In this document: piece by piece, positions 18,504 through 38,887 of the stretch
Numbering within the stretch: position 1 is the stretch's first letter
Layout: each line of letters opens with the position of its first letter
From: a virus
Lineage: Duplodnaviria; Caudoviricetes
Virus record (IMG/VR): IMGVR_UViG_3300044878_000251
Location: 1 to 39,405 of that record
Strand: one strand, 5' to 3'
Length of the DNA stretch: 39,405 nucleotides
Program-made: the position numbers and the translations under genes
Notes under the pieces: model-generated
Databases searched by the model: none
What the model was told of the DNA's origin: nothing
What the model saw: the letters and a program-made list of their open reading frames with translations, nothing else

Positions 18504-19421
18504 TTATTGCCCGCGGTTGCACCAAGAAAACCACCTCCGCTTGCGAGGTTCTTTTGAGGATTTCTGGAAGCCAGATGTCCAATCTACATACCTTTCTGCA
18601 ACTGGCATCCAACCTCCCTGATGGACTCCCGATAAGTCGACCTCGTGTACCTCCGGCGTCTGGCCTCCTAGCCGACTCTTCTTGAACCTTATTATGAGCA
18701 CCTCCGCGTGCTCGCAGAGGTCCGCGCATAGCTCACTACCGAAAAATATGATGTCATCGGTATACGAACTAATACCATCAACTGTATCGCGGTACTCTTC
18801 ATTGGTCTGACCGTTGCCGTAGGGCAAACCAAATATGAGGTGCTCATGCCTAGCGCCGGGTGGGAAGTCATTGTGTTTAATTTTAGTGATGAGTTCGTTT
18901 CTACATTTCAGTGCGGTGTTTAGATTAATCACTGCATCAGCAAGCTCTGTCACGGACGCAAGTGCTCTACCAGCAGTGGATAACCGACTTAAAACTATCT
19001 CTTGCAGATGAGCGACGGGAGGCGCTATCTCGTGAAGCTCTAGAAGATTCATTTTCGGAAATTCAGTCTGCGGCTGACCAGCAGCCATTTTGGCCTTTAT
19101 TTCTCGGCACTTTTTTCGCTGCTCCTCATAATCTTCTTTGAGGGCCTTAACGTGCTGTTTCTTGAGCTTTACGCCACAGTTCATAACCCCTAGAGCAAGC
19201 ATAATGGCAGCGTTCGTATCACGAATTTCTTTAGTCAGCTGTTCTCGTGCTTTGTTTTTCTCCGAAATGTGCCCGGCTGCCCAAGCACCGATACCTGCGC
19301 CCGCTAGCGCCCCAACGATAGTGGTGAACAAGCCTCCATAGTCGATTGTCCAACCAGTGCTCGGCAGTAGCGGTGCCGTGCTCCAACACACGCTCGACAC
19401 GGACTCCAACAGATTTGCCAT
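18504..19421 (-). CDS. Accessory (moron) membrane-anchored protein, 305 aa
   Basis: ATG 19421 with GAGAGGG RBS; hydrophobic helix GGLFTTIVGALAGAGIGAWAAG then helical/coiled region; AT-richer than neighbours. Confidence 0.75.
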   Translation of the reverse strand: MANLLESVSSVCWSTAPLLPSTGWTIDYGGLFTTIVGALAGAGIGAWAAGHISEKNKAREQLTKEIRDTNAAIMLALGVMNCGVKLKKQHVKALKEDYEEQRKKCREIKAKMAAGQPQTEFPKMNLLELHEIAPPVAHLQEIVLSRLSTAGRALASVTELADAVINLNTALKCRNELITKIKHNDFPPGARHEHLIFGLPYGNGQTNEEYRDTVDGISSYTDDIIFFGSELCADLCEHAEVLIIRFKKSRLGGQTPEVHEVDLSGVHQGGWMPVAERYVDWTSGFQKSSKEPRKRRWFSWCNRGQ

Positions 19422-19472
19422 TGCATTCCCTCTCGTTCGACACCGCGATGCATTCGTGGCACATAGCGAGCG

Positions 19473-19502
19473 ATCATAGCGGCGCCAACGGGCGACGGGC
19501 AA
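19473..19502 (-). promoter_or_regulatory. Putative sigma70 promoter of the membrane moron
   Basis: TTGCCC-18 bp-TATGAT on minus strand. Confidence 0.55.
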
Positions 19503-19536
19503 TCAGGCGGTACACAACGGGTGGCAGCCAGTACAA

Positions 19537-20109
19537 TTACACACCGACTTGGAATGGCTCGGATAGGTAGTCAGAAACGATGGCGAGGATCTCATTGTCA
19601 TCCTCGGATGACAGTCCAAGATATGGTCGAGCGGGCATCTCTGTGGATGTCGCACCTCGGGTCACCCATTGGGCAAAGTTGGACTGCCTCTTTTTGACAA
19701 ATCGGTTTCCGACTTCACCACCCTTCTGCTTAAAGTAAACCTGTTGCGACCTGGCGGCCTGTTCGATCTTACCGCCGAACTGATGGATAGCCGCGTATGG
19801 GCGATCCGAACCTAACTCCAATTCATCACCGCTGACCCGATGTCGGATGGTGTCCTGGAGAAACCCGTCTTGCCGCAAGATCTGGCTCGACTTCTTTTTA
19901 GCAATAGTGGACGCGGCCAATGGTGCCCACGGAGCACCGTCGGGAGAAACCTGCTTTCTAAAGCGGTCGTCCGTGGACTGATGCAGGTATTCAGCGATAT
20001 CCAAGAGCGGTACACGAATATCCTCCAGCCGCTCTGCCAACTCTGCCAGTGCCGCACCAGACCGGCTGTCATCCACTTCGACATTGAGCATTGCGCCTGC
20101 CAAGTGCAT
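19537..20109 (-). CDS. Virion morphogenesis protein, Mu gpG-like
   Basis: RFRKQVSPDGAPWAPLA...YAAIHQFGG...MPARPYLGLS; true start may be TTG at 20103. Confidence 0.92.
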   Translation of the reverse strand: MHLAGAMLNVEVDDSRSGAALAELAERLEDIRVPLLDIAEYLHQSTDDRFRKQVSPDGAPWAPLAASTIAKKKSSQILRQDGFLQDTIRHRVSGDELELGSDRPYAAIHQFGGKIEQAARSQQVYFKQKGGEVGNRFVKKRQSNFAQWVTRGATSTEMPARPYLGLSSEDDNEILAIVSDYLSEPFQVGV

Positions 20110-20119
20110 CTCCTACTAT
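20091..20119 (+). promoter_or_regulatory. Sigma70 promoter driving a small antisense-oriented RNA
   Basis: TTGCGC (20091-20096)-17 bp-TACTAT (20114-20119). Confidence 0.65.
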
Positions 20120-20125
20120 CAATGA

Positions 20126-20208
20126 ACGCCCATTGAGTGAGCAGTCCCCGCCAGGACCTCCAGGCCTACACTCAGGGCGAAACCACGTGTGGCGGCGCGT
20201 GGTTTTTT
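20126..20208 (+). ncRNA. Candidate structured small RNA with kissing loops, convergent with MuF-PBECR2 gene
   Basis: Stems CGCCC/GGGCG, TGAGTG/CACTCA, GTCC/GGAC (loop CCGCCA), terminator AAACCACGTG/CGCGTGGTTT (loop TGGCGG) plus T-run; the two loops are exact complements. Confidence 0.65.
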
Positions 20209-20209
20209 G

Positions 20210-21493
20210 TTACTCGTCGATTGTTGACCGACGATACAGCCGTACCCCGATCCTGAGGTGTTCCAGGTAATCTGGATTATTGGCATCCGGCGAGAACGTC
20301 GTTATCCCATCCCAACCATCATCTCCAACCTCAAACACTGAAAGTGCCGGGACCGGCTCGCCATCGATCTGGTAGCGAGAGATGTAGCGGCGCCGCACTA
20401 CCGCCTTGTTCTTGGCATACAGCCATTCCAGCCGCACCCACACCTCATCGGGGTCTTTGATCGCCTCTGCGAGCAGCAGCAGCTCACGGGCGTGGCCACG
20501 CTTCTTGATCTTTAAAGCACCGGTTTTGGCATTGGTGAACAGCTCACGACTGACCACTACGGCATCGCCGGTCACATCCTTGAACAAGACCGGCGCCGCA
20601 TCCGACGCGCCGAACTCTGCTAGGAAGCGCTCAACGTAGGTCTGATCGGGAAGTCCCTCCGGCAAGAGCTTGTCAGCAGTCACTTCCCGCGCTGGAGGTA
20701 GTGGACTAAGTGGCCGCTTATTTGGCAGGCCTGCGCCCTGAACGCTGCTCGACCGCGCACCTGGTTCAGGCAACGGATCGAAAGCACGCAGCGGTGGTAC
20801 GGCCGTGGCCAACCGTGATTGACCAGGTGCGAACTCAAAACCCGGATCAATACCCTTTGGCACACGCACAACGCGAGGGCCGTTCGGGCTGTTCACCCCA
20901 ATGGGGCGGTCCTCATACTCAACCTCTGGCGCCGGACCAACCTTTAAGCCTTGGCGGTCGAGGTCACGCTGACCCACCATGAATTTCTTGCACTTGCAGC
21001 CCCAGCCGTTTTGGGGGCTGTGAGTACTCCACCACGGATCGTCCAGAGGCAGCACCGTCCCGTTCCAAGCCAGATGCTGTGGCCGAGGGTGAGCACTATC
21101 ACCGTGCCGATACAGGCCGAATGGCCGACGCTTACGCAGCTCAGGGTCAGCCATTTGGGTCTCACGGCCGGCGTTGTAGGACTGTCGCAGGTTGGTCTCG
21201 TAGATCACACGAGTCCGCCAGCCACGCCCGCCGTTGTATTCCCAACCATGCTTGCTTACGACCTGGTCAAACCCGGCGCGGAACTGCTCCAGAGTGAGGC
21301 CACTGGTGATGGCCTTTTCGACAGCACCGCGCATATCCGCAAGCAAGGTCTGCTTGGTGGTGCCCGCGACCACGAACGCCCAGTCATGCTCGACGCTGTA
21401 AACATCCGCCCAAGCACGAGTGGGAATATTGGTCTTGCCCCGGAAGTAGTCGATCTGTTCCTGGAACGGTAAAGAACCGTGTGAGATTGCCAA
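20210..21493 (-). CDS. MuF head morphogenesis protein fused to a C-terminal PBECR2-like nuclease domain
   Basis: MuF motifs RVIYETNLRQSYNAGR, PRPQHLAWNG, PQNGWGCKC; C-terminal FLAEFGA...FKDVTG...KRGHAR.LLLLAEAIKDPDEVW...RRRYI...WDGITTF...RIGVRLYRR recalled as PBECR2; TTG start. Confidence 0.85.
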   Translation of the reverse strand: MAISHGSLPFQEQIDYFRGKTNIPTRAWADVYSVEHDWAFVVAGTTKQTLLADMRGAVEKAITSGLTLEQFRAGFDQVVSKHGWEYNGGRGWRTRVIYETNLRQSYNAGRETQMADPELRKRRPFGLYRHGDSAHPRPQHLAWNGTVLPLDDPWWSTHSPQNGWGCKCKKFMVGQRDLDRQGLKVGPAPEVEYEDRPIGVNSPNGPRVVRVPKGIDPGFEFAPGQSRLATAVPPLRAFDPLPEPGARSSSVQGAGLPNKRPLSPLPPAREVTADKLLPEGLPDQTYVERFLAEFGASDAAPVLFKDVTGDAVVVSRELFTNAKTGALKIKKRGHARELLLLAEAIKDPDEVWVRLEWLYAKNKAVVRRRYISRYQIDGEPVPALSVFEVGDDGWDGITTFSPDANNPDYLEHLRIGVRLYRRSTIDE

Positions 21494-21548
21494 AGGAGTA
21501 GCCTCGTGATATCACCGCTGCTTACCTAAAAATCTGAAGGAAAACAAC

Positions 21549-21791
21549 ATGAGTTCAATTGATAAAAACCTCGAATCGGTCCCTGTAACTGGTCTGATTT
21601 TGGGCGAGGTTCTTGCAGCCATCACTACGATTGTTCACATCATCAAAGAACAACCTGCTTTTGATGTCGCGCTTTACGACGAAAGAGTTCAAGGCATCCT
21701 GCAGGCAAAGGGAGATGACATGTCTACTGTGTTTCGGGCAGTACTAGAAAACACTGTCAGTCTCGACGACGAAACACCTAAAGCCCTCTAA
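21549..21791 (+). CDS. Accessory 80-aa acidic protein, opposite strand, between portal and MuF
   Basis: AAGGAAAA RBS before ATG; candidate promoter TTGCCA-17-TATCAC (21487-21515); AT-richer; fills the gap between conserved genes. Confidence 0.7.
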   Translation: MSSIDKNLESVPVTGLILGEVLAAITTIVHIIKEQPAFDVALYDERVQGILQAKGDDMSTVFRAVLENTVSLDDETPKAL

Positions 21792-23322
21792 GCACGTCAT
21801 ATCTACCAGCGAGGCTGGCAGCAGCCAGCCCATCTGCCATCGCATCGGCGAGTTGTCCTGCATCCATATCGGGGTAGACCTCGATCAACCGGTCACGAAA
21901 CTCTTCAAGGCTGCTGACCGAATCAAGCAATTCACGAATGGCTTCAACCATGTCTCCAAGCGGGGCAGCTGTAGCGGTTTCCAAGGTCTTAACCTGGTTA
22001 TCAACGACATCCTTGATATCGACCGCCTTCTTCGACTGCTCCCGGTTAGCCGCAGTCGCAAGCGCAGGCACTGCAGGTTTGCCCAGGATCTTTGCGCCAT
22101 CAGCTGGGGACGGCAGATTGAGCTTTTCCAGAATGACCGACTGCTCTACCTCTAGCCCAAGCGGCACCAGTTCCTTCAGCGCCGTTATGAGTAGCTGAAT
22201 ATTCTCTGGCTGTGGAACATCGACGATCAGCCTCGGATAGGGACGACCAGGTGCAAAGTTCAGATCACAGAACGGACGAACGAATTGCCGGTTGAAGGTG
22301 TTGCTGAGCGCCTTGGCATCCGCTTCCAGCAGATCCAGTCGCACCTCATTGTGGACCTTAGCTTGCGCCAGGCTGGCACCATCGTCGGCGCTCATCGTCT
22401 GGCCAACGACCGCCTTACTGACCTGTTTGTCCCACCATTCGGCCAACCCTTTAAAGAAGTCCCCGGCACCAGCCACGTTTGCAGCCGTCTGAAAATCAAT
22501 CTTCATGCTGTCGGGAATTACCGCTGCAGCGTCGCTGCCCAAGTTAGCTACGGCCGAAAGCAGGACGCCAATATCATCCTTACTTGCGTTCGGTCCATAC
22601 CGGCCTACGCGCATTGGTATCCCGTAGATATCCGCAAAGCCCATCCAGTCCTTCCATGTCCATGCCTTGCACATGTAGGCGACTGCCGCCAGCCTGGCTA
22701 AACCGCCACGTATTGGAAGCCCAGCACGAATGCGGGGCAAATGGACGATGAACTTATAAGGAGCCAGGGCGATGCCGTTGAGCACATCGGCCTCATCGAG
22801 CAGCCGAAGTTCACGACCGGTCTCGCGGTCAAACTGGAAGAAACGCTGGTCACGCGTCTCGAACCGATCAGGCATCCAGGTCTTGCCGCTTCGATCCCAG
22901 ATGATCTCGCTGACGGAATAGCCTTTGCCCAAGGCATCGACTGCTTCGCTCTGCAGTTCGCCAAACTCGGGCGACGAGACCACCTCACGCAAGGCATCCG
23001 CCCTACGGATGTCCTCGGCTTCATCGGACGCTGCCTCTACTCGAATGTTAAGACCTGCCACTGCCAGCTTGCGCGTACCCAAGACCGAGGCGTAATGCAG
23101 GTCACGCTCCTCCATCTCTTCGGCCAAGGTCAAATAGTCCAGGGCTGTGCCTTCAGCAGCGTCCTGCAGGATTCGCGCGAGTCTCTCTGGCGTCAGCCCA
23201 CTGGCAACCGACGAGTGCCAAACCTGCCGAACACCGGTCACCTTGGGGGCTGCCAGCTCTGCAGTGAGCTGGTCGAATTGGATAGGCCGACCGTGCTGGT
23301 CGACAATGCGTGACTGGGCCAT
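21778..23322 (-). CDS. Portal protein, Mu gp29-like (DUF935)
   Basis: SGLTPERLARIL, EEMEERDLHYASVLGTRK, IYGIPMRVGRY, QAKVHNEVR. Confidence 0.93.
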   Translation of the reverse strand: MAQSRIVDQHGRPIQFDQLTAELAAPKVTGVRQVWHSSVASGLTPERLARILQDAAEGTALDYLTLAEEMEERDLHYASVLGTRKLAVAGLNIRVEAASDEAEDIRRADALREVVSSPEFGELQSEAVDALGKGYSVSEIIWDRSGKTWMPDRFETRDQRFFQFDRETGRELRLLDEADVLNGIALAPYKFIVHLPRIRAGLPIRGGLARLAAVAYMCKAWTWKDWMGFADIYGIPMRVGRYGPNASKDDIGVLLSAVANLGSDAAAVIPDSMKIDFQTAANVAGAGDFFKGLAEWWDKQVSKAVVGQTMSADDGASLAQAKVHNEVRLDLLEADAKALSNTFNRQFVRPFCDLNFAPGRPYPRLIVDVPQPENIQLLITALKELVPLGLEVEQSVILEKLNLPSPADGAKILGKPAVPALATAANREQSKKAVDIKDVVDNQVKTLETATAAPLGDMVEAIRELLDSVSSLEEFRDRLIEVYPDMDAGQLADAMADGLAAASLAGRYDVLRGL

Positions 23323-24899: not shown

Positions 24900-24948
24900 G
24901 AGCGCACTCTCCAGTGGTACGATTTGAGTGCCAAACAACCTGCATAGG

Positions 24949-25446
24949 ATGAGCAAAATGCTTGATTGGGTTTCGAATGCTTTGAGCAGCGTCAATGCTG
25001 CGCGAGAAATTACCAGCAGTCTGGTCACGCTTCGTGACGAGGCGCTGGTCCGCGACAGGGTGTTCGCTTTGACGAACAACTTGATGGACCTTCAGCAGCA
25101 GATGATGACTGCACAGCATCAGCAGATGGAAATGCTTGAAACAATTCGAGAGCTGAAGGCCGCCCTTGCCATGGCCAACGAAAAGGCCGACCTCGTCGCT
25201 AAGTATCAACGACATAAATTTGTGGACGGAACCTTCGCATATAAGCTCAAGGACAATGGTCAAGTCGAAGAACCTGAATATTTTGTGTGTTCTAACTGCA
25301 TGGAGAGTGAAAATGTCGTAACTCTCCAAAGAATTGCGGTGGGAAATACTTCCTTCCATCGATGCCCGCGCTGCACAACCAACGTTAACAAGATCGTCAG
25401 ACGAACAATCGTGCAACCGACTGTAAATCACTGGGGTAACAAATAA
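24949..25446 (+). CDS. Accessory coiled-coil plus zinc-ribbon protein, opposite strand, between terminase subunits
   Basis: Heptad-rich N-half, CSNC...CPRC; extended -10 TGgTACGAT at 24915-24923; start 24949 or 24958. Confidence 0.78.
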   Translation: MSKMLDWVSNALSSVNAAREITSSLVTLRDEALVRDRVFALTNNLMDLQQQMMTAQHQQMEMLETIRELKAALAMANEKADLVAKYQRHKFVDGTFAYKLKDNGQVEEPEYFVCSNCMESENVVTLQRIAVGNTSFHRCPRCTTNVNKIVRRTIVQPTVNHWGNK

Positions 25447-29915: not shown

Positions 29916-29923
29916 TGGTTAGC

Positions 29924-29992
29924 TGCTCGTCAGTACCCGGCCACTACGCCGGGCAGACCACCCCAGTTGCCCGGAGTGGTTTCGCATTAGTG
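29924..29992 (-). ncRNA. Type II hammerhead ribozyme
   Basis: Minus strand UGC-GAAAC-CACUCCGG(GCAA)CUGGGGUG-GUC-UGCCCGGC(GUAGUG)GCCGGGUA-CUGACGA-GCA: full catalytic core, three stems; upstream CACUA can pair with loop UAGUG. Confidence 0.92.
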
Positions 29993-37509: not shown

Positions 37510-38460
37510 TTAGAGCTTTCGAAAAAGCCGCATATACCCTCTGCTATCACCAGTTGTGCCAGAAAGCTTCATTGAATCATACAATTCTGACAGGGGGACC
37601 CACGGATTATCCCCATACTTATAATTTGCATGTTCAACAAGATGAAGATGAAAATGGCCATGCTCATCCACTCTCATTTTATCAACATATGTAAAATGCC
37701 CAGTGTTTTTACTGGTAAAATGCGGAGCATACTGATCTAAAGGCTGTTCGACCTTCCCCAACTGATACAACTGCGCCCCACCAAAATTTACGATAAACCT
37801 GCTCCCATCCAACTGACTTAACTGCTTTGCAAAAGCCTCGAGAGACATATCAGGAACTAAAAAGCATTCTGCACTCCATGAGATACCACAACTATTGAGC
37901 AAGCGATTAGCAATGTCTGTTAATTGTTGTAGGCTGAAACCGTCGGTGAACACATGCGTTCTTTCTTCACAGGTCAAAAAACCAATGGCAAAATCCAACC
38001 TATCGACAACAGTTGCTTGCGCTGGAAAGTTTGGCGTCAATAAATCATGTGTTGCGGATAGAAAAGAGGTGAGATGACAGGTCCTGGGTGTTGGTTGTGT
38101 GTAGCTCTGTGCTGTGACTGAGTTCCCGCTTGATAGATCCACTTCATCCGCTGAAGGTTCTTTCGCGAACTGTATAGCCTTTTCATTTCCAAGAAGAAAA
38201 AGCGCTCTGCGTATTTCATTAAACTTGTCTGGCTGAGTTCTCCAAAGCGTCCCATCGCCGCTATTTTTTGCGGATGAAAAGCTTGAGTTTTCAATAGCCA
38301 TATTTGGTAAAGACTTTGACTTTGACAACAATGTAAAATCTATATTTGAATTCGAAGCCGATACGAGCTTTCCAGAAATAACACCAGACACTTCGAGAGA
38401 TGGGAGACTTGACAAGTCAATAGTAGGAAGCTTAGCCGTGGAATTTAAAGTTATGGGCAT
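37510..38460 (-). CDS. Phytochelatin-synthase-like (papain-fold) protein with Ser-rich N-terminal extension
   Basis: Q-x5-C (QPTPRTC), GFSLQQL, FIVNF, GHF, LVEHANYKY..PWV..SELYDSM...SRGY match PCS blocks; ATG 38460 with GGAG RBS; AT-rich. Confidence 0.7.
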   Translation of the reverse strand: MPITLNSTAKLPTIDLSSLPSLEVSGVISGKLVSASNSNIDFTLLSKSKSLPNMAIENSSFSSAKNSGDGTLWRTQPDKFNEIRRALFLLGNEKAIQFAKEPSADEVDLSSGNSVTAQSYTQPTPRTCHLTSFLSATHDLLTPNFPAQATVVDRLDFAIGFLTCEERTHVFTDGFSLQQLTDIANRLLNSCGISWSAECFLVPDMSLEAFAKQLSQLDGSRFIVNFGGAQLYQLGKVEQPLDQYAPHFTSKNTGHFTYVDKMRVDEHGHFHLHLVEHANYKYGDNPWVPLSELYDSMKLSGTTGDSRGYMRLFRKL

Positions 38461-38887
38461 TATCTCTCCTGACGCAGGGTTTGTTTTGTGTTTCCATCCA
38501 GACATGGACGTTGACCGCCCCTAGCCGATACATAGTTTATCCTACGAGTTTTTTAAGTTTTCGGATTATTTCAAAGCATCGCTAATGACTCAATAAGTTT
38601 ATTCATGCAGCGCAAGAAGTTAGCGCACCCTAGATCGTCAAGCTCCTGAAAGAGAAATACAATTTATTTCCACGACTGAAAAAACCCAAGTATACGTAAC
38701 AATCTGTAGTGATATGTGGCTAGCTTTGATATGTCTGTTGAGTGGAATGCGCTGCAACAGCCATAAGTTCAGCCATCAGATGTATTTATTGGATTTTTTG
38801 AAAGGCAGGACTGCCGAGGATTGCGCTGTTACATCTTCGAACAACTGGCGACAGGAGGCAGGTCCCAAATTTACCGAACGCCGCAAA

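Follow-up and report, generated by a model that had tools for sequence, protein, structure and literature searches.

What neutralises the predicted nuclease at the end of a phage head protein when no immunity gene follows it? We addressed this question at the muF locus of the virus record IMGVR_UViG_3300044878_000251, whose full 39,405 nt (the window) constitute a Mu-like transposable prophage. Its minus strand encodes, by open reading frames (ORFs) and Pfam families, portal, MuF, gpG, protease I and capsid T, and the closest MuF relatives come from Pseudomonas species. A small ORF lies downstream of 89.4% of MuF toxin genes (Jamet 2017, PMC5576092). The initial annotation of this locus proposed that MuF ends in a PBECR2-like nuclease domain, that no immunity ORF separates it from gpG, and that the gap instead encodes a structured RNA acting on the nuclease. 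The first two points held: PF18810 matched MuF residues 289–421, and the muF-gpG gap, 106 nt long if gpG starts at TTG 20103, is ORF-free. On the comparative evidence presented below, we consider it probable that the gap RNA serves as an RNA antitoxin, or immunity factor, for the predicted virion-borne RNase, binding the nuclease pocket and protecting the lysogen. This reading draws on the structure and strand of the RNA, its −10 box, the missing immunity ORF, the repeated joint loss of the RNA with K331 and H/R334 of the nuclease, and stand-alone RNA copies.

The plus strand of the gap had been described as a self-contained unit consisting of a promoter, an ~83-nt RNA and a T-run terminator. 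Folding supported this description, with z = −3.3 for the plus-strand gap (0 of 200 shuffles as good) versus z = −0.5 for a slightly longer stretch of the minus strand; a terminator scan detected the terminator-like hairpin, and the predicted transcript came to ~82 nt (Table 1). The promoter coordinates were exact and the −10 box was backed by homologs, but the two boxes matched only 7 of 12 consensus positions and a consensus scan did not list them, so that comparative support was needed. Of 84 relatives, 83 had a TAnnnT box lying 28–40 nt ahead of the inner loop, compared to 116 of 1331 background windows (8.7%), with the caveat that the first two letters of the box often coincide with the Shine-Dalgarno context of gpG. 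The U tract ends 1 nt before the muF stop codon, and the RNA and muF are convergent.

The inner loop of the RNA (L3) was originally described as the exact complement of the terminator loop (L4); the coordinates were exact and the pairing covaried. For the comparison we assembled 161 non-redundant MuF-PBECR2 loci from 75 gpG-related viral loci, two pattern scans, two PBECR2-alignment scans, five named phages and two genome loci; querying the genome collection with a single divergent protein yielded no more than 2 loci. In a first alignment of 34 close RNAs, 98.5% of the cells were paired, compared to 36–44% in slid controls, and 20 of 28 pairs were compensatory, including 4 of the 6 pairs in the kissing helix. 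Scanning 95 sources with a covariance model built without the pseudoknot yielded 39 matches. From these came a second set with 38 distinct sequences, which shared only the window with the training set and showed 98.8% paired cells and compensatory changes in 27 of 28 pairs, with the caveat that its nested helices were fitted to the model and that the shuffle controls were inflated by related sequences. The kissing helix, though absent from the model, was 100% paired in this second set with all 6 pairs compensatory. A G-U pair in the terminator stem had been taken to favour the plus strand, and this extended to the family: plus-strand reading of both alignments gave 133 G-U versus 4 A-C cells, which together with the conserved −10 box assigned the RNA to the plus strand. 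Finally, a sequence-blind kissing detector fired, at its strict setting, in 84 of 113 long gaps versus 17 of 565 shuffles; in many of the misses the complement was visible by eye and the inner stem was short.

RNA relatives were found in Rheinheimera prophages and in the phages RR1-B, RcWaterboi and RcapMu, and were spread across proteobacterial Mu-like phages. RcapMu, in Rhodobacter capsulatus SB1003, has a 92-nt gap, the −10 box and an intact nuclease motif, with the strict detector negative. No named family was recognised, in agreement with the initial annotation: Rfam contained no match to positions 19900–20400 at E ≤ 10 and none in the gaps of 20 divergent loci, where two chance matches fell elsewhere. 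Phage and plasmid records contained nothing similar to the gap by BLASTN, and BLASTN of a second-subfamily RNA found nothing in E. coli genomes and only short chance matches in plasmids. Three candidate identities were rejected. The 3′ half resembles a hammerhead ribozyme (GCGAAAC followed by stem III), yet the CUGANGA core is lacking. An anticodon mimic would suit the CUGCCA/CUGUCA-like loops of the window's subfamily, but loops elsewhere read CCGACU, GCACCA, GGUGAU, UCCGGA or ACGCAC; given this variation among subfamilies, only the pairing is conserved. Read-through from muF into gpG was discounted by the out-of-frame stop and start and by the location of the structure on the opposite strand. 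In the gap of locus L219 each of the two kissing loops reads TCCGGA, a palindrome that would permit pairing between RNA molecules; in L277 (positions 1923–2130) the gpF-gpG gap, 215 nt long, contains a tandem of two RNAs of different subtype, resembling immunity cassettes stacked on each other; and in L253 (673–769) MuF reads past its usual end, with the extended C-terminus encoded opposite the RNA.

Presence of the RNA followed the predicted active site of the nuclease. Loci with gaps of at least 75 nt formed the RNA class (114 plus the window, 115 in all) and those with gaps of at most 31 nt the no-RNA class (40); seven loci without a locatable gpG were excluded from this count, all seven with the motif kept, and L253 was placed in the RNA class because the covariance model finds its RNA beneath the extended C-terminus. 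K328 was present in 114 of 115 RNA-class versus 7 of 40 no-RNA loci, K331 in 113 of 115 versus 1 of 40, and H or R334 in 115 of 115 versus 5 of 40. The combination of K/R331 with H/R334 occurred in 113 of 115 long-gap loci versus none of the 40 short-gap loci. The fold residues P348, E350, W352, R368, W394 and R414 were invariant in both classes. The covariance model had no match in any of the 27 short-gap PBECR2 loci (of the 40) to which it was applied. The two RNA-class exceptions were L072, which is very divergent and doubtfully aligned, and L289 (K331N); a metagenome locus, L308, combines K331Q and a frameshifted C-terminus with an intact RNA. Motif damage with the RNA kept was therefore seen in L308 and L289, and an intact motif without RNA in 0 of 40 loci. 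This apparent order of decay, with the motif damaged first and the RNA retained, fits an antitoxin.

A tree was built from 112 rows after deduplication at 90% and removal of the motif columns; with unclassified rows assigned to the RNA class, it required five changes of RNA status, three of them forced by branches with support of at least 95 in the Shimodaira-Hasegawa-like approximate likelihood ratio test (SH-aLRT). Every no-RNA group was nested among RNA-bearing rows; these groups comprised three Pseudomonas-type clades, the L246/L250/L251 clade and phage JBD25, and the decayed motif differed in each. Since the RNA is lost jointly with the predicted active site, it is likely to be the antidote of the toxin. 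From the side of the RNA, PBECR2 flanked 48 of 49 viral pattern matches (the 49th was truncated at a contig end), 16 of 16 second-subfamily matches, as judged by contig identity with the loci of one of the PBECR2-alignment scans, and 20 of 26 metagenome matches. The linkage expected by the initial annotation was thus tight, but it applied to PBECR2 with an intact K-x-x-K-x-x-H/R motif rather than to the domain in general, since the RNA is missing from 40 PBECR2 loci. Over 100 loci, RNA similarity tracked PBECR2 more closely than gpG (partial rank r 0.53 vs 0.12) or the MuF N-domain (0.50 vs 0.05).

A protein immunity gene was sought on both sides of muF. Directly after muF, a small immunity ORF was absent in both classes, with gpG following after 1–31 nt or after the RNA, and the few ORFs inserted there were unrelated to each other. 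The alternative named in the initial annotation, rescue by the 80-aa gene upstream of muF, was ruled out: this gene has homologs in both locus classes, 30 of 52 RNA loci leave no room for any gene at its position, and it behaves as a variable moron rather than a conserved partner. Unrelated genes of ~250–400 nt separate muF from the RNA in L077/L091, L100, L111 and L177. The muF-RNA junction, that of L308 included, acts as an insertion hotspot for small genes unrelated to one another, and the RNA remains at the gpG start, where it is held by the overlap of its promoter with that start.

These arrangements bear on two competing explanations. In the first, a cis-antisense RNA of type I-like action would pair with the late polycistronic mRNA past the muF stop codon, causing its decay or less read-through and keeping MuF silent in the lysogen. 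Convergent transcription, a U tract ending next to the stop codon and full complementarity to the late transcript all suit this scheme, which also predicts RNA loss after nuclease death. However, complementarity in cis comes automatically and gives no reason for divergent subfamilies to keep an internal-loop sequence, an AU bulge and an intramolecular kiss in common; in nearly all loci the RNA does not overlap the muF coding sequence, in the loci named above whole genes intervene, and an antisense RNA would be powerless against toxin delivered as protein. We therefore regard it as improbable. In the second, the element would be independent of the nuclease, acting as a new self-cleaving ribozyme or as an mRNA-strand structure governing gpG translation. 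The prophage does contain a hammerhead ribozyme elsewhere (29917–29987), and the RNA stays beside the gpG start despite gene insertions, a position already explained by the promoter overlap. The Rfam searches of the window's gap and of the 20 divergent loci yielded no ribozyme match, the G-U versus A-C counts exclude the mRNA strand, and RNA presence tracks the nuclease motif, not gpG, leaving this second explanation highly implausible.

To characterise the proposed target of the RNA, we analysed the PBECR2 domain by sequence and predicted structure. At E ≤ 0.01, Pfam reported only PBECR2 and Phage_Mu_F on MuF, and no PADLOC family matched; a PDB sequence search gave no match, and an atlas look-up returned only the sister families PBECR3 and MuF_C. 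An AlphaFold model built from 108 sequences, with a predicted local distance difference test score (pLDDT) of 94, placed K331–H334 immediately ahead of the core helix and T398 on the final strand of the core. The highest-probability Foldseek rows were chains of 6CP9, the CdiA-CT Kp342 complex (probability 0.66–0.82, E 0.035–0.086), and in VIA about 12 of the top 50 rows were colicin D, contact-dependent inhibition (CDI) or RelE-type toxins (Z 3.0–4.1). With an AlphaFold model from only 15 sequences (pLDDT 83), the sole fold match of any use was 3AO9, colicin E5 (Z 3.3). The spacing of K331/H334/T398 is as in the Kp342 triad K157/Y160/T255 (PMC9086364). Active sites of PBECR domains have been described as a His, replaced by Arg in one of the families, on the N-terminal helix with a C-terminal Thr/Ser (Iyer 2017, PMC5512222), and PBECRs have been grouped with colicin-like RNases, with a Lys before the His on a pre-alpha element and a contribution of the last strand (10.64898/2026.08.28.747851). 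In the model, the present residues occupy these sites in the matching order. The motif and the modelled fold are consistent with, and not proof of, a colicin-like RNase.

Stand-alone copies of the RNA were also detected. Among the 6 metagenome matches without PBECR2, two were cut short and four, representing three distinct loci, lay in host-type DNA; a covariance model scan of 151 proteobacterial genomes added 2 matches. Orphan promoter-RNA-terminator units without a nearby nuclease or gpF in host-type DNA were represented by L309/L314, L300, L297 and L376. L309/L314 lies between MarR and IclR regulator genes, and its phage homology spans only ~125 nt, corresponding to promoter, RNA and terminator; the −35 stretch is degraded but retained in L309. 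L376 is an intact orphan with its own compensatory loop pair, located between topoisomerase-like and cyclic-nucleotide-binding-like genes (labels read off the translations), and its possibly incomplete genome has no PF18810 or PF04233 match. The independent orphans L297:657–758 and L300:658–744 lie ~70–350 nt from the degenerate end of CRISPR-like arrays and point towards the array; the repeats beside both end in GAAAC.

Several observations weigh against an antitoxin. The RNA class was set by gap length, and the strict kissing detector passed 84 of its 113 long gaps; the tree came from a quick search with SH-aLRT support only. Adjacency by itself yields similarity correlations of the kind described above, and among the 40 closest loci the RNA tracked PBECR2 (0.42) no better than the MuF N-domain (0.40). 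Fold matches were individually weak, with none at E ≤ 0.001 in Foldseek and VIA Z scores of at most 4.1, tied with unrelated folds. Position 334 is Arg rather than His in 90 of 115 RNA loci, so that the motif is accounted for equally well by a basic patch for RNA binding and by catalysis. L375 is a scar in which the last ~65 nuclease codons remain; a plasmid copy, L358 (NZ_OP378668), is decayed, and there is no PBECR2 match on NZ_OP378668; L297 has a weak gpG-like fragment nearby, L300 is truncated by a contig end, and the model matched in just 3 of 101 family genomes around L376. As the orphans are few and not conserved across the family, they could be neutral remnants or prophage scars. Lastly, an RNA serving as ligand or cargo would predict the joint loss too.

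This last point is the core of a competing explanation, in which the RNA is the cargo or cofactor of a ribonucleoprotein: a basic patch of PBECR2 would bind, and perhaps trim, the RNA, and MuF would deliver it to the head or to the following cell, the complex serving there as a decoy against defence or as a packaging aid. In that case, the kissing loops could pair between RNA molecules, a resemblance to phi29 pRNA, whose loops pair between molecules. This explanation accounts for the joint loss equally well and draws further support from the frequent Arg at position 334, from the location within the portal-MuF-gpG head module, from the self-complementary loops of one relative (L219) and from the RNA binding proposed for inactive MuF-fused PBECR domains (Iyer 2017, PMC5512222). 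It also predicts RNA-less loci with the motif, whereas 0 of 40 were found and motif-damaged loci with the RNA exist. Moreover, the RNA has a putative promoter of its own that opposes the late operon, in place of co-expression with the head genes, five lineages with apparently the same head module are RNA-free, and the host-chromosome orphans are hard to account for. We judge the cargo or cofactor explanation unlikely. The original claim that the RNA neutralises the MuF nuclease, with a substrate, decoy or cofactor as alternatives, was upheld to the extent that all computational refutations proposed for it failed, and the cargo/cofactor alternative is retained beside it.

How an antitoxin of this kind might act can be outlined from its parts. 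PBECR2 would be an active colicin-D-like RNase, probably directed against tRNA, packaged via MuF and injected alongside the DNA. The RNA would be transcribed from its own sigma-70-type promoter opposing the late operon and hence be present in the lysogen. The L3-L4 kiss may lock a compact shape in which the unpaired, conserved strand faces the pocket formed by Lys/Lys/His(Arg)/Thr, where this strand would mimic the substrate, either uncleavable or cleaved and held. Positions 20158–20168 are the candidate protein-contact strand; their invariance in the first alignment is partly built in because the first search pattern included them. The RNA would shield the cell against MuF, whether leaky or lytic, as well as against sibling virions, and once the nuclease is disabled it would become dispensable and be deleted.

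PF18810 matches from genome samples extended the comparison to distant His-type clades, which likewise have a TAnnnT box on the opposite strand and hairpins after the stop codon. In some of these clades the loops can be seen to be complementary (CCTGGA/TCCAGG vs TCTGGA/TCCAGA; CCGCAT/ATGCGG). At its strict setting the detector was positive for 9 of 30 distant-clade loci versus 22 of 300 shuffles, with some of the positives probably false. As leads, these loci suggest that distant PBECR2 clades have clade-specific RNA partners. Other RNA architectures behind the stop codon were noted in L326, L327 and L344, in L329, L331, L334, L336, L339 and L340, and in L335, L346 and L347, with an outer stem around two hairpins whose loops are complementary. 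L326, L327, L351 and L353 have short stand-alone PBECR2 frames (148–189 aa) with no MuF domain in frame, followed directly by gpG in L351. A broader proposal, which we advance tentatively, is a polymorphic toxin system with RNA immunity, in which a head-packaged, injected RNase is paired with a constitutive kissing-loop RNA guarding lysogens, and in which RNA architectures would be clade-specific, the cassettes swappable or stackable, and single RNAs captured by bacteria as a defence.

Table 1. Positions of the features of the muF-gpG region in the window.
Feature	Position	Strand	Basis or remark
Predicted ~82-nt small RNA	20127..20208	+	5′ end inferred from −10 box; 3′ end = U tract
Putative −35 TTGCGC	20091..20096	+	3/6 consensus; within first gpG codons (opposite strand)
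Putative −10 TACTAT	20114..20119	+	Back to back with gpG Shine-Dalgarno; 17-nt spacer from −35
Arm 1	20127..20179	+	P1 20127–31/20175–79; AU bulge; P2 20134–39/20169–74; P3 20144–47/20154–57
Arm 1 internal loop	AGCA 20140–43 opposite CUCCAGGCCUA 20158–68	+	
Loop L3 CCGCCA, 5′ strand of kissing helix	20148..20153	+	Compensatory with L4: 4/6 pairs (first set), 6/6 (second)
Unpaired strand	20158..20168	+	CUCCAnnCCUA in window's subfamily, YCCAA-like in others; partially conserved
P4/intrinsic terminator hairpin, loop L4 UGGCGG (20190–20195), U tract	20180..20208	+	Terminator scan lists 20179–20206; covariation
muF (gpF), 427 aa	20210..21493	−	Pfam: MuF domain (PF04233) aa 55–169 + C-terminal PBECR2
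PBECR2 domain, predicted colicin-D-like RNase	20231..20629	−	PF18810 E 1.6e-28, 99.8 bits vs cut-off 27.1
K328-x-x-K331-x-x-H334 codons, predicted catalytic/RNA-contact motif	20492..20512	−	Conservation in RNA vs no-RNA loci
T398 codon	20300–20302	−	
gpG (virion morphogenesis)	19537..20103	−	PF05069; TTG start 20103 likely (starts aligned in relatives); Shine-Dalgarno AGGAG 20110–20114
80-aa moron between portal and muF	21549..21791	+	Homologs in RNA and no-RNA loci; not immunity gene

Elsewhere in the window, four moron-like genes (18504–19502, minus; 21549–21791, plus; 24928–25446, plus; 37510–38505, minus) are uncharacterised; Pfam and NCBIfam scans, where made, assigned them to no family significantly, and their PADLOC scores were weak at best. 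The type II hammerhead ribozyme (RF02276, 66.1 bits, minus strand) fills the gap between two early-region genes.

If the antitoxin reading is true, an ~80-nt single-copy RNA blocking a colicin-like RNase would represent a new RNA antitoxin family acting on a new toxin fold, and RNA immunity to an injected toxin would form a new category. It would also explain the many proteobacterial MuF C-termini that lack immunity genes, many of which were left without an assigned toxin or immunity function by Jamet 2017 (PMC5576092). The role of MuF on injection becomes directly testable: the RNA should allow cloning of the toxic domain, and natural RNA-less, motif-dead phages serve as controls. The stand-alone chromosomal copies point to a possible RNA-only defence against a virion toxin. 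This RNA was not described in the literature searched, a scope that left aside subscription journals and large structured-RNA candidate lists; no activity test of PBECR2 was found there, and the main text of a genome-language-model preprint on non-coding RNA (10.64898/2026.09.22.753630) mentions neither MuF, PBECR nor kissing loops. The parts of the polymorphic, CDI and MuF toxin-immunity literature used here describe protein immunity factors only, as does a meeting report for MuF in its portion cited here (PMC11806420), and the classical RNA antitoxins are repeat arrays paired with ToxN-type toxins.

The locus resembles MuF polymorphic toxins in having muF directly after portal in a temperate phage and a predicted C-terminal nuclease, and differs in that the RNA occupies the slot of the small downstream ORF (PMC5576092). 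As a PF18810 member scoring above the cut-off, the domain belongs with the PBECR domains, predicted virion-packaged RNases for which the parts of PMC5512222 and 10.64898/2026.08.28.747851 relied on here name no RNA partner; inactive versions were noted for Mu's own MuF-C (Iyer 2017, PMC5512222). With the tRNases colicin D and CdiA-CT Kp342 it shares a Lys-x-x-His/Tyr before the core helix, a Ser/Thr on the last strand and weak fold matches; those toxins are neutralised by protein immunity factors, unlike the RNA proposed here. With regard to type I toxin-antitoxin (TA) RNAs, which are encoded in cis and overlap the toxin transcript, the gap RNA is complementary to the presumed late mRNA and not to the muF coding sequence. 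AbiF/AbiFr and AvcID also employ non-canonical RNA antitoxins, one of them prophage-encoded, but against other toxins (the AbiF protein and a deoxycytidylate deaminase) and in anti-phage defence rather than with a head-protein effector (PMC12373285, PMC10511110). The type III TA systems ToxIN, CptIN and TenpIN likewise combine an endoribonuclease toxin with a small pseudoknotted RNA (PMC12283969), an activity only predicted for MuF-PBECR2. Their antitoxins are tandem repeats placed with a terminator upstream of the toxin in one operon (PMC12283969), whereas the gap RNA is single, downstream, on the opposite strand and under its own promoter, with no tandem repeats within 19400–21900. They fold into an H-type pseudoknot, in contrast to the covarying hairpin-hairpin kiss that uses the terminator loop. 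The ToxN, CptN and TenpN toxin families were not encountered, the partner here being a predicted colicin-like BECR domain fused to a head protein. Provided that the RNA is an antitoxin, these comparisons make it reasonably likely that the system works like a type III TA system and yet fits no described family.

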